IMG/VR virus record: IMGVR_UViG_2585427765_000009
DNA length: 23,882 nt
From: a virus
Lineage: Duplodnaviria; Heunggongvirae; Uroviricota; Caudoviricetes
Reading direction: 5' to 3' (one strand)
Shown here: piece by piece, positions 1 through 23,882 of the stretch
Position numbering within the stretch: the stretch's first letter is position 1
Layout of the letters: each line of letters opens with the position of its first letter
The notes under the pieces: generated by a model
What the model was told of the DNA's origin: nothing
What the model saw: only the letters and a program-made list of their open reading frames with translations
Database searches by the model: none
Position numbers and translations under genes: made by a program

Positions 1-766
1 CCAGCTCCACTTCTGTCCGGTTTTTCCAGCTCTTACGGTGTATTACCTCCGCTTTGTAAAGGCCATTGATGCTCTCCGCCATCGCGTTGTCATACGAGTC
101 ACCAGTACTTCCTGTTGATGCCAGTAATCCGGCTTCCTTAAGCCGCTGTGTGTAGGCCAGCGATACATACTGAGAACCTTTATCACTGTGATGGACTGTG
201 CCGGACGGTTGACGGGCCCATAACGCCTGCTCCAGAGCATCCAGCACGAATGTCGTTTCCATAGACGATGAGACCCGCCACCCCACGATGTATCCGGCAA
301 ACACATCAATGATGAACGCCACATAGACGAAGCCCCGCCATGTGCTGACGTAAGTAAAATCAGCCACCCACAGCTGGTCAGGTCGTTCTGCCACGAACTG
401 ACGGTTTACGCGGTCGCCTGCGGCAACGGCTTTCCGGCTGATGGTCGTACGGACCTTTTTACCCCGGAGAACACCGGCAAGTCCCATAACCGCCATGAGA
501 CGTGCCACAGTGCATCTGGCCACTCTGATACCTTCCCGTAACAACTGACGCCAGACTTTACGCACACCGTACACCTGATGATTTTCATCGTATACGCGCT
601 GTATCTCTTTCTTCAGCCAGTCATCGCGCTGCGCACGGGCACTGCGTTTATCCGGATGATGTCGCTGTTGCTGACAGTGGTAATACGTTGACGGGGCAAT
701 ATGCAGTTCGCTGCATAGCGGTCCGACCCCGTACTGCTCACGCAGCTTATCCAGCAGTGGCATCAT
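1..766 (-). CDS. IS3-family transposase orfB (DDE catalytic domain), 3' end beyond window
   Basis: My translation from ATG at 766: MMPLLDKL...[31 protein letters not shown]...[11 protein letters not shown]; no stop before the window edge, so absent from the ORF track. Confidence 0.8.
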
Positions 767-1089
767 TTTTTCCAGAGGCGGTCGAACTCCGCCTTCGCAA
801 AATAAGCGGAAGCCTGGCGAAGGATATCGTTACTGCGGCGCAGTTCACGATTTTCACGTTCCAGCTCTTTCAGACGCTGACGTTCAGCGGTGGTGAGCCC
901 GCCATCACCGCCTCCGGTATCCCGCTCATGCTGGCGTACCCAGACACGCAGAGTCTCCGGTGTACAGCCAATCTTTGGGGCAATGGAACAAATTGCCGCC
1001 CACTGTGAGTCATATTCGCCCTGACTTTCCAGAACCATACGAATCGCTCTCTGACGGACTTCGGGGGAAAAACGAGTATTTTTAGTCAT
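763..1089 (-). CDS. IS3-family transposase orfA (helix-turn-helix / leucine zipper)
   Basis: 108 aa [22 protein letters not shown]...; SD AAGAGG upstream; stop overlaps orfB start. Confidence 0.85.
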
Positions 1090-1143
1090 CCTGTTTACCT
1101 CTTTCTCAGGGAGTTTAGTCTCCAGGATTCCCGGGGCGGTTCA

Positions 1144-12044: not shown

Positions 12045-12572
12045 CTAGAGACTCTCTCCTTCCTCATCAGGAATTAATTCAGCAGCACAAGCCTCGTAGG
12101 ATTTTTCCTGAAGAGTGTATCGCAGGTCATCAATGGCCTGCTGTACAACGCCGACGGCCTGAGGAGTCAGGGCGCAATCGCGTTCAAGAACATCCGGAAT
12201 TGTCTCCAGAACCTGGACGACAGCCTTTCTCATGGACGAATAGACGATGACTACTTCATCAACTGGGATGAGTTTTCGCTGCTCCTTTTCCAGCTTGATC
12301 CTTTCATTTTCAGACTGGTACCAGTCCTTTCTCTCTTTCGGCTCCATACGGGATGGATCATGAACAGAGTCTGCTGCCTCATGCTTCACACTAAACAGGG
12401 CGGGCCCGACATGCTGCAGGGCGTAAACGGGGTTCCCCCTGACAGTCGCAGCCACAGGAGTGTTGGCCGCGAGGAGCCGTTTTTTTACTGTGTCCCGGTG
12501 AAGCCCAAAGGCCTCGGCGATTTTAAAAACACTCCAGTAATAAGCATCACCGATCCCGCTCACATTTGACAT
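12045..12572 (-). CDS. Terminase small subunit (lambda Nu1-like)
   Basis: N-terminal HTH-like segment and ERKDWYQSENERIKLEKEQRKL region resemble Nu1; alternative start at 12584. Confidence 0.7.
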   Translation of the reverse strand: MSNVSGIGDAYYWSVFKIAEAFGLHRDTVKKRLLAANTPVAATVRGNPVYALQHVGPALFSVKHEAADSVHDPSRMEPKERKDWYQSENERIKLEKEQRKLIPVDEVVIVYSSMRKAVVQVLETIPDVLERDCALTPQAVGVVQQAIDDLRYTLQEKSYEACAAELIPDEEGESL

Positions 12573-12749
12573 AAGCAACTCCATCTGGCAGGTGAAAATC
12601 AGGTTTATTTATATATTTCAATTAATTGCAAACTAGTCTAATGACAGGGAGAAAAAAATATTGTACAGCTGAAAAGAGAAATAACTTTTAATTATCAATA
12701 AATTACCAAACATGCTGCCGCCGCCATGGAAATGCAAAAACTAGCCTTT

Positions 12750-12780
12750 TTCCGCGACGCTCCCGCCCCGTGGCAGGGCC
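12750..12780 (-). other. Candidate cos site (cosN-like)
   Basis: GC-rich island in AT-rich DNA ~190 nt upstream of terminase small subunit; minus-strand ACGGGGCGGGAGCGTCGCGG resembles lambda ACGGGGCGGCGACCTCGCGG. Confidence 0.45.
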
Positions 12781-13134
12781 CCTCACTGGTAGGACCCGAC
12801 AGCCTGACAACCGTGACGAGCATCTGAAACAGAGCTTTACATAATGGCATGGGGATAATTCAGAAGGACATCACAGCATGCCCACACAAATTAGTGTGAG
12901 TGTCCTGTTTCTTACTACGCGCAGGACTGACGAGCATGAGGGGAAAATACGAGAACCGAAATGCCTTATCTTCAGAAATGCAGCCAGCATCCGAACTGGA
13001 CGATATTGTAAATTCACCTAAATACGAGGCATTGCTGTAGTTGAATTACAGTACTGTATTAGCCTGACAGTGACAGAATACGATATTGACTCTGTCACTT
13101 GTGAAATGGTCAGAATGGTTAGCAGTTATGGTGA

Positions 13135-13341
13135 TCAATCAACCATCAGGGAATAATCCTTCGTATTCTTATCGTGCTTCACTAACGCTGCCTCAATTGC
13201 CCTGAATGCTTCCAGAGATACTTGATGTTCTATACATGCAATTATAACATCCGGGTAACTCATCGAAATGGTGCTATTAAGCATAGTTTTTACACGAACC
13301 TGCTCTTGGGAGGGGGCCTCAGTACATTGATCTTTATGCAT
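13135..13341 (-). CDS. Hypothetical small acidic protein
   Basis: 68 aa ORF with ATG and SD GGAG; AT-rich context. Confidence 0.4.
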
Positions 13342-13628
13342 TTTGTCGCTCCATGCGTTTGTTCTTCACTTGTCGCTAAAAATATAACTTCAAATCTTTG
13401 AGCGTGGAAGTGTGGAAGTCACTGCGCGTTGATCTTGCATACATCGGTCGTTTGTTTCCCCCCTGGCATATCAGAAAAACCAGGTTTTATAGCGGAATCA
13501 ATACTATGTATTTTCCACCTGACTTTTGACATAAATCATCAATAAAACATATAAAGGTCAGACCAGATTGAAACGATAAAAACGATCTTGCAAACTACGT
13601 GCCCTCATACCATATGGAAGGTTTATCT

Positions 13629-14039
13629 ATGGATCAGGTAGTCATTTTTAAACAAATATTTGATAAAGTTCGAAACGATTTAAACTATCAATGGTTTTAT
13701 TCTGAGCTAAAACGTCACAATGTCTCACATTACATTTACTATTTAGCTACAGATAATGTTCATATTGTATTAAAAAATGATAATACAGTGTTATTAAAGG
13801 GCCTAAAAAACATTGTGTCTGTCAAATTTTCAAAGGATAGGCATCTTATAGAAACGACCTCTAATAAGCTGAAATCCAGTGAGATCACATTTCAGGAATA
13901 CAGAAGAAACCTTGCTAAAGCAGGAGTTTTTCGGTGGGTTACAAATATCCACGAACAAAAAAGATATTACTATACCTTTGATAATTCATTACTCTTTACT
14001 GAAAACATACAGAGCACATCACAAATATTTCCACACTAA
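13629..14039 (+). CDS. Hypothetical protein, possibly DUF1398/YbcV-like
   Basis: 136 aa from ATG at 13629 with SD GGAAGG; only plus-strand gene in the phage; AT-rich; family guess from memory only. Confidence 0.45.
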
Positions 14040-14358
14040 ACCATAACGTCCGGTTTTTTCTACCCCAGCACCGGACTGGCTGACATAAAGAGCAACCCCA
14101 CGTTAAGTTGACGCGTTAATAACCCGGTGTACATCGTTTTTGATTATTCCCCCACACTCGCGCAGAAGGAGTTCCCCGTCAGGCTACAGTCATAATTAAT
14201 GCAAGAGTACAGCGACGATACAGCGCACAGAAATAAATCAGGTATCCATTGACTTCACAAAGACGGTGCATAGCATCGACAGGAGTAATTGCGTAAATTG
14301 AACTCTTGGCACACTTTAGCCACCGGCGAATCTTCAGCGGATTATCCTTGGCCGGTTT

Positions 14359-14823
14359 TTATCTGAGGCATTGCTCTCGAATGTATAGCTGTGCCCCTTC
14401 AAGTTGTTTTTGCATTATTATCAGTCGCGCTCTGAGGGTGAAATAATCCCGTTCAGCGGTGTCTGCCAGTCGGGGGGAGGCTGCATTATCCACGCCGGAG
14501 GCGGTGGTGGCTTCACGCACTGACTGACAGACTGCTTTGATGTGCAACCGACGACGACCAGCGGCAACATCATCACGCAGAGCATCATTTTCAGCTTTCG
14601 CATCAGCTAACTCCTTCGTGTATTTTGCATCGAGCGCAGCAACATCACGCTGACGCATCTGCATGTCAGTAATTGCCGCGTTCGCCAGCTTCAGTTCTCT
14701 GACATTTTTGTCGCGCTGGGCTTTGTAGGTAATGGCGTTATCACGGTAATGATTCAGCCCCAGACTAAGCGCACCACAGGCCGCCAGCAGGGCAATGATG
14801 ACCACGCACAGTACGCGGTTCAT
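14359..14823 (-). CDS. Rz: Rz i-spanin
   Basis: N-terminal TM helix then coiled-coil periplasmic domain; contains embedded Rz1. Confidence 0.85.
14421..14603 (-). CDS. Rz1: Rz1 o-spanin lipoprotein
   Basis: Embedded in another frame of Rz; lipobox VVGC; PPPPP proline-rich stretch. Confidence 0.8.
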
Positions 14824-15717: not shown

Positions 15718-16032
15718 CTAACAACCCGTAATCGAGTTATCAGAACTGTTAATTTTTATGGTATACCGCGCCTCTGAACAGGGGCGCGTTTCTGGCAACA
15801 GCTCGTCCCCTTCACATAACCCGGCAGCAACATCCAGGAAGACCTGTCTGATGCTCCTTCTGGCTGCTGACTCATAAAACTCCAGCGCGGCACCTTCAAC
15901 ACGGTCCAGCGAGATGTCCAGGGCAAAAATTTCACCGTCAAAGCGTTTTTTGTCCCGTAACGCTAAAGTTACCGTAACTTTATTCTCAAAATTGCGGATC
16001 CCTTTCACAATCAGTTCATATTTTTGAGTCAT
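15718..16032 (-). CDS. Hypothetical soluble protein inserted between holin and endolysin
   Basis: 104 aa; ATG 5 nt after holin stop with SD GGGGAGAG; no TM or signal peptide. Confidence 0.6.
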   Translation of the reverse strand: MTQKYELIVKGIRNFENKVTVTLALRDKKRFDGEIFALDISLDRVEGAALEFYESAARRSIRQVFLDVAAGLCEGDELLPETRPCSEARYTIKINSSDNSITGC

Positions 16033-22671: not shown

Positions 22672-23484
22672 CTAGACACTTCCGAGCCGCTGATAATATT
22701 GTTTTTCGTATTCAGTTGGTGGCATATGATCACTCGAACCATGCCGACGCTTACTGTTATAAAACATTTCGATGTAATCAAAAATATCACCGCGAGCTTC
22801 TTCTCGCGTTCCGTAGATCTTTTTCTTTATCCGTTCACGTTTCAGTAACTGGAAAAAACTTTCTGCGACTGCGTTGTCATGACAGTTACCGCGACGGCTC
22901 ATACTGCCCTCCAGCCCGTGTGATTTCAGGAACGACTGCCACTCATAGCTTGTGTACTGACTGCCTTGATCAGAATGAACCAGCACCTGCTTTTGAGGAT
23001 TACGTCGCCACACGGCCATCAGAAGTGCATTCAGGACAATATCCTTTGTCATCCGGGGCTGCATTGACCAGCCAATAACTTTGCGCGAGAACAGGTCAAC
23101 AACCACAGCCAGATACAGCCAGCCTTCGTGAGTCCGGATGTAGGTGATGTCCGTTACCCAACGCTCATCCGGTGCTTCCGGGTTGAACTGCCGCTGGAGC
23201 CTGTTGGGCGTCACGATGCTGGTTTCACCCTTACGTGCCCGTGGGCTACGGTACCCGACCTGAGCCCTTATCCCGGCACGCTTCATCAGTCGCCAGACAC
23301 GGTTAACTCCGCACTGTTGTCCGGTATCCCGCAGGTCGAGGTGGATCTTGCGATAACCATAAACGCAACCCGACTCCAGCCAGAACTGCTTTATCAGCCC
23401 CGTCAGTCTCAGGTCAGCATGATGCCGCCGTGAATCCGGCTGCTGAAGCCAGGCGTAAAAACCACTCGGATGCACATCCAGCAC
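22672..23484 (-). CDS. IS3-family transposase orfB (DDE domain); true N-terminus supplied by frameshift fusion with orfA
   Basis: WVTDITYIRTHEGWLYLAVVVDLFSRKVIGW...HSDQGSQYTS...NAVAESFF motifs. Confidence 0.85.
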   Translation of the reverse strand: MLDVHPSGFYAWLQQPDSRRHHADLRLTGLIKQFWLESGCVYGYRKIHLDLRDTGQQCGVNRVWRLMKRAGIRAQVGYRSPRARKGETSIVTPNRLQRQFNPEAPDERWVTDITYIRTHEGWLYLAVVVDLFSRKVIGWSMQPRMTKDIVLNALLMAVWRRNPQKQVLVHSDQGSQYTSYEWQSFLKSHGLEGSMSRRGNCHDNAVAESFFQLLKRERIKKKIYGTREEARGDIFDYIEMFYNSKRRHGSSDHMPPTEYEKQYYQRLGSV

Positions 23485-23540
23485 CCGACAAAGCAGTCGG
23501 ACAGGCCAGCAATGGGTGTTGTCACGGATAAAGGCGTACC

Positions 23541-23819
23541 TCAGTCGGACAGCTTTGCGAAGTACGCCGCGGCTTTTTTTAATATGTCCCGTTCGTCGGT
23601 AACCCGCTTCAGCTCTTTCTGGAGGCGTCGGATCTCAGCCTGAGCGTCTGACTGGACTTTATTGGTTGAGGAATCCGGGCCATATGCCTTTATCCAGGCA
23701 TAAAGACTGTGGGTGGTGATACCGAGACGTGTTGCCACGCTGGAAACAGAATGGCCGCGATCAACAACCTGTTTTACCGCTTCAATTTTAAACTCTTCGG
23801 GATAACGCTTACCGCTCAT
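23541..23819 (-). CDS. IS3-family transposase orfA
   Basis: HTH region plus leucine-zipper-like C-terminus ending AAAYFAK; SD GAGAGGTG; ORF-track GTG at 23825 or ATG at 23819. Confidence 0.85.
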   Translation of the reverse strand: MSGKRYPEEFKIEAVKQVVDRGHSVSSVATRLGITTHSLYAWIKAYGPDSSTNKVQSDAQAEIRRLQKELKRVTDERDILKKAAAYFAKLSD

Positions 23820-23882
23820 GGGCACCTCTCTTTAAGTCATCTTAAATGACTCTGAGGTGTCTGTTAAACCCGTGGCGATTCA

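Follow-up and report, generated by a model that had tools for sequence, protein, structure and literature searches.

Two small genes of phage lambda, lambdap78 and lambdap79, lie directly beside bor at 46.9-48.1 kb, and their counterparts in the E. coli K-12 prophage DLP12 are ybcV and ybcW. The gene pair has long been known under these names and is present in every lambda genome record. A further relative of lambdap78 and ybcV is ydfO of the K-12 prophage Qin, whose product was solved by NMR as a soluble protein (2HH8). Neighboring bor, a moron expressed in lysogens, occupies the interval between Rz and cos in lambda, is antisense to and independent of the late operon, and encodes a lipoprotein with a signal peptide and a lipobox. 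Although the best-studied phage and around half of E. coli genomes carry these genes, they belong to the uncharacterized "y-ome", and a 2024 y-ome survey still lists ydfO as uncharacterized.

For lambdap79, a connection to host defense has been described. All lambda-vir escapers of the Vulcan NIR-NADase defense delete lambdap79, apparently via recombination with Qin, and co-expression of lambdap79 with Vulcan is toxic; uninfected MG1655 expressing Vulcan shows normal growth (bioRxiv 10.64898/2026.09.04.749371). Because the escapers delete the gene and its co-expression is toxic, lambdap79 is evidently made in lytic infection and dispensable. In a genome-wide CRISPRi screen of lambda, lambdap79 was scored "essential" (EOP 3e-4) though listed as non-essential, whereas bor and lambdap78, which lie on the other strand, scored non-essential. 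We attribute the lambdap79 score to polarity caused by a roadblock to late transcription, an effect that the authors of the screen document for the lambda nin region.

Gene pair and prophage context

The window, i.e., the whole stretch of DNA analyzed here (23,882 nucleotides), matches part of the chromosome of E. coli E203449 with 100% identity. It represents the late half of a defective lambdoid prophage that is bounded by IS3-family elements and resides at the chromosomal locus of K-12 Qin, with hokD, rspAB, and ynfA alongside. The Q-type antiterminator gene is followed by the tRNA, holin, DUF1327, lysozyme, and Rz genes, then by the gene pair, and finally by the terminase, portal, capsid, and tail genes. 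The two open reading frames (ORFs) named in a preliminary description of the locus were both recovered, namely one for a 68-residue protein on the minus strand (13135-13341) and one for a 136-residue protein on the plus strand, with an ATG at 13629 and its end at 14039. They are separated by a divergent control region of 287 bp (13342-13628) with a GC content of 39%, in agreement with the AT-rich spacer of about 290 bp that had been reported. The low GC content attributed to the pair as a whole was likewise confirmed, with values of 30.7% for the 136-residue gene and 41.5% for the 68-residue gene compared to 50.4% for the window. In having a base composition distinct from that of the flanking phage genes, the pair resembles morons in the sense of Juhala and Hendrix.

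The proposed location between the lysis cassette and cos was also borne out. On one side lies Rz, the spanin gene that concludes the lysis cassette (minus strand, 14359-14823; Pfam Phage_lysis E=1e-52 and RefSeq annotation), whose stop codon begins at 14359. On the other side, cos was placed via the ends of phage genome records: position 12768/12769 corresponds to the end of the record of Tritos as well as to the start of that of cdtI. The minus-strand sequence from this point is GGGCGGGAGCGTCGCGG, which resembles lambda cosN and the left end of lambda. The cosN-like cohesive-end sequence GGGCGGGAGCGT (minus strand, 12757-12768) is similar to lambda GGGCGGCGACCT; the exact lambda cosN 12-mer was not found in the window. 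The site is located 366 bp past the stop codon of the 68-residue gene and 172 bp ahead of the start codon of a DUF1441-type small terminase subunit gene (minus strand, 12045-12584; Pfam DUF1441 E=2e-44), the first gene past cos, whose homologue in phage cdtI carries a small terminase annotation.

In lambda, the Q-antiterminated late transcript runs from the lysis genes across cos into Nu1. Given this direction, the 68-residue gene is sense and the 136-residue gene antisense to the late transcript. The opposite orientation previously ascribed to the pair therefore applies to the 136-residue gene, which opposes the late operon as bor does, but not to the 68-residue gene, which is co-directional with it. 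This held for all phage and prophage loci examined: genes of the ybcW type run with the late operon and those of the ydfO/ybcV type against it. The 136-residue gene had also been called the only plus-strand gene of the phage. This is correct for the intact RefSeq-annotated coding sequences in the window; as a statement about the whole phage it is unsupported, since the window covers only the late half of a defective, IS-bounded prophage.

The pair recurs with identical position and orientation in lambda, DLP12, HK629, PhiR30_1, and Tritos, and homologous pairs are also present in HK630 and DE3. The proposed cargo position of the bor type is thus apt, as the lambda homologues adjoin bor in equal relative orientation, although bor itself shows no sequence similarity to either gene of the window and is absent from this prophage. 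The arrangement agrees with that of lambda and DLP12 in having a divergent ybcW-type gene upstream of the ydfO-type gene, whereas K-12 Qin possesses ynfO (DUF3950) at this position, co-directional with ydfO, and no ybcW. YdfO of Qin shares with its counterpart in the window the length of 136 residues, the post-lysis position, the antisense orientation, the leader, and a PdhR box (see below). Correspondingly, lambdap79 and YbcW share with the 68-residue protein the length, orientation, cos distance class, upstream leader, and FNR box, but differ strongly from this allele in the N-terminal 15 residues. Two further differences concern the cos-proximal side: there is no ylcI (DUF3950) between the 68-residue gene and cos, unlike in lambda and DLP12, and the downstream terminase gene is of the DUF1441 type rather than Nu1 as in lambda. 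Searches of the flanking spacers for ylcI/ynfO (DUF3950) and other small ORFs gave no Pfam and no tblastn match, and an Rfam scan of positions 12400 to 14500 at E<=1 returned no match.

Overall, the preliminary description proved correct in its observation and partly right in its interpretation; the feature itself is already known and ordinary. The value of the present analysis is one of housekeeping rather than discovery, in that the pair is resolved into two separable modules, two annotation labels are found to be unsupported, and regulatory boxes are shown to be conserved.

Properties and conservation of the two proteins

A homology search of both proteins had been suggested, and it yielded an end-to-end family match for each. 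The 136-residue protein matches DUF1398 (PF07166) over profile positions 1-119 of 119 with 156.7 bits versus a cut-off of 22 (E=3e-46), and thus belongs to the YdfO/YbcV/lambdap78 family. It is basic (pI 9.5), about 96% identical to K-12 YdfO (b1549), and 79% identical to YbcV/lambdap78. It matches 2HH8 over residues 1-135 (E=3.7e-84), and a profile search returned 2HH8 only. An AlphaFold2 model calculated from 29 close homologues had a mean pLDDT of 49 and was unusable; we infer a YdfO-like fold solely from the high identity to 2HH8. A weak likeness to the parafibromin N-terminal domain (phmmer E=0.008) was not recovered by the profile search and is spurious. Initiation at an in-frame GTG (13599) would yield a protein of 146 residues; however, the ATG and its Shine-Dalgarno sequence GGAAGG (plus strand, 13616-13621) are conserved across homologues, favoring the 136-residue start, which is also the RefSeq annotation. 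Just past the stop codon lies a conserved hairpin, GTCCGGT-N15-ACCGGAC (plus strand, 14048-14076), as a candidate 3'-end element. Its stem is partly kept in lambda and kept in Tritos, where a T:A pair is replaced by C:G. The hairpin has no T-run, so that a promoter-gene-terminator cassette is not demonstrated for the DUF1398 gene.

The 68-residue protein matches phrog_657 over positions 1-68 of 68 (E=2.1e-45) and is 76% identical to both DLP12 YbcW and lambdap79, which are 100% identical to each other; identities to phage and E. coli members of the family range from 76 to 93%. It had been described as acidic, which is true only in a mild form (pI 5.5; 10 acidic versus 7 basic residues). No Pfam family match and no sequence relatives among the solved structures of the PDB were found, and no DNA-binding fold or family was recognizable. 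A structural model of moderate confidence (pLDDT 65) features three helices comprising residues 12-26, 29-38, and 43-60; a fold search with this model against the PDB and BFVD gave no match at E<=0.001. The family is very narrow, with 122 matches among 1.84 billion cluster representatives, many of which are fragments or noisy lambda reads. Within the family, the core formed by residues 16-68 is nearly invariant and the first 15 residues are variable, as reflected by a dN/dS of 0.18 for codons 16-68 compared to 0.59 for the first 15 codons. The Shine-Dalgarno sequence GGAG (reverse complement of 13349-13352) is conserved.

For DUF1398, dN/dS was 0.15-0.35 between well-diverged copies, with dS reaching about 0.6-0.7; values of up to 0.74 were obtained between near-identical pairs, which contain little information. 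Neither ORF varied in length between the copies compared. Of 5,426 complete E. coli genomes, 2,010 (37%) contain the 68-residue gene and 3,011 (55%) a DUF1398 gene of this type at near-full length; the DUF1398 paralogue ycgX, at least, is present in nearly all of them. A search of GTDB genomes for distant DUF1398 contexts yielded none; the non-Escherichia matches were almost all the lambda allele itself, i.e., control-DNA contamination. The full-length family matches, the constant length, the low dN/dS values, and the conserved ribosome-binding sites together indicate, from comparison of sequences, that both ORFs are real genes under purifying selection. A lack of conservation of the ORFs, named beforehand as an outcome that would speak against the proposal, was not what we found: both genes are conserved across diverged lineages.

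These data also bear on the view that the two genes are at present without function and in decay, persisting only through their linkage to cos and the lysis genes. Both are non-essential in lambda, they reside in a defective, IS-bounded prophage remnant, the 68-residue family is very narrow, and a function is still unassigned after decades. Yet dN/dS is well below 1 for both genes, lengths are constant, ribosome-binding sites are conserved, transcription-factor boxes are invariant while the synonymous divergence of DUF1398 reaches about 0.6, and 37-55% of E. coli genomes have kept the genes. Decay is therefore regarded as quite improbable.

The comparison with bor and lom in the preliminary description implied that the pair might code for envelope or virulence proteins of the lysogenic-conversion type. 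The genes do occupy the same cargo slot as bor, the DUF1398 gene shares its antisense orientation, and several lambdap78/YbcV records bear the name "putative envelope protein". However, neither protein contains a signal peptide, functional lipobox, hydrophobic N-terminus, or membrane segment, whereas the Bor control was positive; specifically, the maximum Kyte-Doolittle values (15-residue window) of the two proteins were 0.95 and 1.34 compared to 2.22 for Bor, which has the lipobox ITGC. As YdfO was solved as a soluble protein and the envelope label was apparently propagated without a supporting experiment, such a role appears highly improbable.

Another label, "head and packaging; head protein", is attached to phrog_413, which the DUF1398 protein matches, and RefSeq and pharokka-type records copy "head protein". 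Together with the position of both genes beside cos and the terminase genes, this could suggest a virion head protein in the case of DUF1398 and a packaging accessory protein acting at cos in the case of the 68-residue product. We consider this scarcely credible. All head proteins are made from the late operon, to which the DUF1398 gene is antisense; lambdap78 is non-essential according to both the CRISPRi screen and the literature; and the genes occur with two unrelated types of small terminase, Nu1 (lambda, PhiR30_1) and DUF1441 (window, HannyBb). Moreover, K-12 cryptic prophages without head genes keep intact copies under purifying selection. Both labels, "putative envelope protein" and "head protein", are unsupported.

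Conserved boxes in the divergent control region

The 287-bp spacer shows a mean column identity of 89% across six lineages, which exceeds the conservation of the synonymous sites of DUF1398, and two blocks (13330-13400 and 13517-13635) are near-invariant. The second block includes an FNR-box-like site, TTGACATAAATCAT, at 13526-13539, which is the reverse complement of the site predicted for K-12 ybcW. An FNR ChIP-chip peak with the predicted site beneath it has been reported for K-12 ybcW (PMC1802558). The FNR-box-like site is invariant in the window, DLP12, lambda, PhiR30, Tritos, and L042, and is lost in the Qin-type and HannyBb-type arrangements. Within the same block, a PdhR-box-like palindrome, AGGTCAGACCAGAT, is located at 13555-13568, about 60-75 bp ahead of the start codon of DUF1398, and is invariant in all lineages compared, K-12 Qin included. 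In K-12, PdhR SELEX sites are located in ybcV/ybcW and ynfO/ydfO, and in a pdhR mutant the mRNAs of ybcV and ybcW were decreased 10.0-fold and 8.9-fold, respectively; PdhR in an activator role is unusual, and this role rests on one RT-qPCR experiment (PMC7660256). For microaerobic versus aerobic conditions, an "RNA (Up/Down)" column lists 1.67 for ybcV and 1.79 for ybcW. Both predicted boxes have thus been conserved by selection. The independent regulation that had been postulated for the pair is thus supported by the FNR and PdhR data for the spacer of the K-12 homologues and by conservation of the boxes here, but not for the pair as one unit (see below).

Promoter prediction, proposed earlier as a check, did not lend support: a consensus sigma-70 scan of 1.8 kb found two sites versus 5.6 expected, neither of them within the spacer, and no good promoter in the spacer. 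A candidate -10 hexamer of the 68-residue gene, TAGTAT (minus strand, 13501-13506), is conserved, and in phages without DUF1398 the homology upstream of ybcW stops exactly there; it was not called by the consensus scan. If TAGTAT is the -10 element, the center of the FNR box (13532.5) would be positioned near -41.5 of the 68-residue gene, as in a class II arrangement.

The region of about 165 nucleotides upstream of the 68-residue gene was also considered as a structured RNA. This was rejected, as the z-score of the minimum free energy was -0.49; RNAalifold gave a weak consensus of -10.9 kcal/mol with one compensatory pair. A >1000-fold rise of ybcV and ybcW upon overexpression of T4 MotB was measured in BL21(DE3). 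Since this strain carries the lambda DE3 copies of the genes, the effect may reflect prophage late transcription and not relief from H-NS.

Assortment of the modules and expression timing

The preliminary description treated the pair as a single independently regulated unit. This did not hold, as each gene occurs without the other and their prevalences differ (37% versus 55%). Specifically, ynfO and DUF1398 without ybcW are found in K-12 Qin, PhiR70_1, PhiR49_1, E. albertii, and others, and in such ybcW-less loci the DUF3950 gene lies directly upstream of and co-directional with DUF1398. Conversely, HannyBb and PhiR63_1 possess gnsB followed by ybcW, without DUF1398. The slot between Rz and cos is in fact a mosaic, with combinations of bor, DUF1398, ybcW, ylcI/ynfO (DUF3950), gnsB, ynfN, csp genes, and KilA-N. 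In Qin-type copies, homology is found only from the PdhR-box-like palindrome onward, whereas HannyBb-type copies keep about 165 nucleotides upstream of ybcW, ending at TAGTATTG, and have no FNR or PdhR box. The module boundaries set by these natural variants fit the predicted regulatory boxes. The independent assortment of ybcW and DUF1398 indicates two mosaic modules and no coupled system.

A functionally coupled pair with a shared divergent promoter (resembling a toxin-antitoxin system, a regulator and its target, or a two-gene phage exclusion system) has several observations in its favor. The genes are direct neighbors with divergent orientation in lambda, DLP12, Tritos, PhiR30_1, and the window; the spacer shows high conservation; the two K-12 mRNAs decrease jointly in the pdhR mutant; and a mildly acidic product (pI 5.5) is paired with a basic one (pI 9.5). 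In addition, small helical proteins encoded beside a divergent gene are often regulators, and the model of the 68-residue protein is helical. On the other hand, each gene is frequently alone in viable phages and prophages, with unequal prevalence; K-12 Qin keeps ydfO alone, and lambda escapers without lambdap79 still plate. The 68-residue protein has no recognizable DNA-binding fold or family, and a search of the PADLOC-DB v2 defense models gave no significant match, the best hits having E=0.014 and 0.011 with partial coverage. A type II toxin-antitoxin pair was rejected, as the genes are divergent rather than bicistronic and each is often found alone. Altogether, coupling is judged unlikely.

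The reading we favor, and hold to be probable, is that the two genes are independent, non-essential accessory modules of the moron type in the lambdoid cargo slot between Rz and cos. The first module would consist of the DUF1398 gene, encoding a putative soluble cytoplasmic protein from very AT-rich DNA. As this gene, like bor, is antisense to the Q-dependent late transcript, it is most likely expressed from the resident prophage under the control of host transcription factors via the predicted PdhR box and the adjacent predicted FNR box; late transcription would oppose its expression in lytic growth. The second module would comprise the 68-residue gene, which is co-directional with the late operon and for this reason probably expressed for the most part late in the lytic cycle, through transcripts that extend from the late promoter, possibly supplemented by a weak FNR-dependent promoter of its own. 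Its product is predicted to be a small, mildly acidic, three-helix cytoplasmic protein, whose lambda homologue lambdap79 is dispensable and is sensed by the Vulcan NIR-NADase abortive-infection system.

Expression in lysogens, as previously suggested for both genes, is doubtful for the 68-residue gene. DLP12 YbcW is identical to lambdap79, yet uninfected MG1655 containing Vulcan is healthy, which argues that the resident prophage copy of ybcW is not appreciably expressed in aerobic LB. The module structure also explains the escape route via Qin, because in K-12 Qin the flanking DUF1398 and DUF3950 genes are present while the ybcW module is missing. That the allele of the window behaves like its K-12 and lambda homologues is inferred, as are the expression timing and any physiological role.

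A more specific and rather unlikely version of events is that the 68-residue protein is a late effector acting on a host pathway (for example, in anti-defense or takeover), that Vulcan-type NADases have evolved to guard against this effector, and that the DUF1398 protein is a factor of the prophage state wired to the pyruvate and oxygen sensors of the host, PdhR and FNR. If true, the slot preceding cos would encode, back to back, a metabolic-state-dependent lysogen function and a lytic counter-defense. Elucidating both functions would fill a minor gap in the understanding of lambda and account for the retention of a gene that is sensed by a defense system.

Two reports on YdfO touch on the cellular role of DUF1398 proteins. 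Overexpression of YdfO is cited second-hand in PMC4077768 as raising oxidative-stress resistance; the main text of PMC3105296 (Wang et al. 2010), a presumed source, was not found to contain this claim. In addition, exposure to an imidazolium ionic liquid causes a strong, short-lived induction of ydfO (PMC4077768). A role of DUF1398 in stress tolerance is only hinted at by these observations.

Boundaries and late-region landmarks of the prophage remnant

An IS3-family element lies at each end of the prophage remnant, and the two differ from each other. The left element (window 1-1090) truncates the tape-measure gene. Next to hokD, the right one (22672-23820) takes the place of the early, immunity and integration region. 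Consequently, this is a defective phage, of which the late half alone remains. Within this half, the minus strand at 12757-12768 carries the sequence GGGCGGGAGCGT, followed by CGCGG, which we take to be a lambda-like cosN. In support of this placement, the genome records of phages Tritos and cdtI have termini that meet at window 12768/12769. A DUF1441-type small terminase gene starts 172 bp downstream of the cosN-like sequence. In the lysis cassette, a DUF1327 (YdfR-like) gene (15718-16032, minus strand) is placed between the holin and lysozyme genes, as in K-12 Qin.

Sequences within and around the divergent gene pair

The least conserved part of the divergent spacer contains a tandem 8-bp duplication, GTGGAAGT GTGGAAGT, at 13405-13420, which is absent from both DLP12 and lambda. 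In Tritos and the compared lineage L042, a different insertion, of 16 bp, occupies this site. Immediately 3′ of the DUF1398 stop codon lies a hairpin, GTCCGGT-N15-ACCGGAC (14048-14076), which is kept partly in lambda and also in Tritos, where it shows one compensatory change (T:A to C:G); no T-run follows it on either strand. The first approximately 190 bp of the region between the DUF1398 stop and Rz (14040-14358) are homologous to the lambda lambdap78-bor spacer, although bor itself is missing from this region of the window. HK629 has an annotated promoter-like site upstream of bor; at the corresponding aligned position, lambda reads TACAAT and the window TACAGC, so this site appears degraded in the window. 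Another promoter-like site, TTGACT-16-TAGCAT (14249-14276, plus strand), is directed antisense into Rz.

Between lambdap79 and cos, phage lambda carries an intact 64-aa open reading frame that is 100% identical to K-12 YlcI (DUF3950) and has no counterpart in the window. It is located on the complementary strand at positions 200-394 of the lambda segment L005 (about 48109-48303 of J02459), an interval across which J02459 has no annotated feature.

Probable annotation and database artefacts

The label "head protein", which comes from PHROG 413 (phrog_413), is now in wide use for DUF1398 proteins, lambda lambdap78 among them; it appears, for example, in NC_001416 and in further records of the RefSeq or pharokka type. 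This label looks like a spreading annotation artefact, since the DUF1398 gene runs opposite to the late operon and is nonessential. Furthermore, the exact lambda bor-lambdap78-lambdap79-ylcI segment occurs in approximately 30 "genomes" of unrelated bacteria (loci L017-L047), i.e., Pseudomonas, Kitasatospora, Flavobacterium, Cohnella, metagenome-assembled genomes (MAGs), and others. Contigs of approximately 3.5 kb are a frequent form, and some are labelled as plasmids, such as "Arcanobacterium hippocoleae plasmid unnamed1" (L022; CP136411.1; 3566 bp) and Brevibacillus fluminis "plasmid pContig2" (L021; 3552 bp). Because this contig size fits a sequencing spike-in amplicon, these occurrences look like contamination with lambda control DNA. 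Many approximately 3.5-kb ENA contigs among the matches to the DUF1398 and 68-aa families probably represent the same contamination, and the apparent diversity of both families is thus probably inflated.
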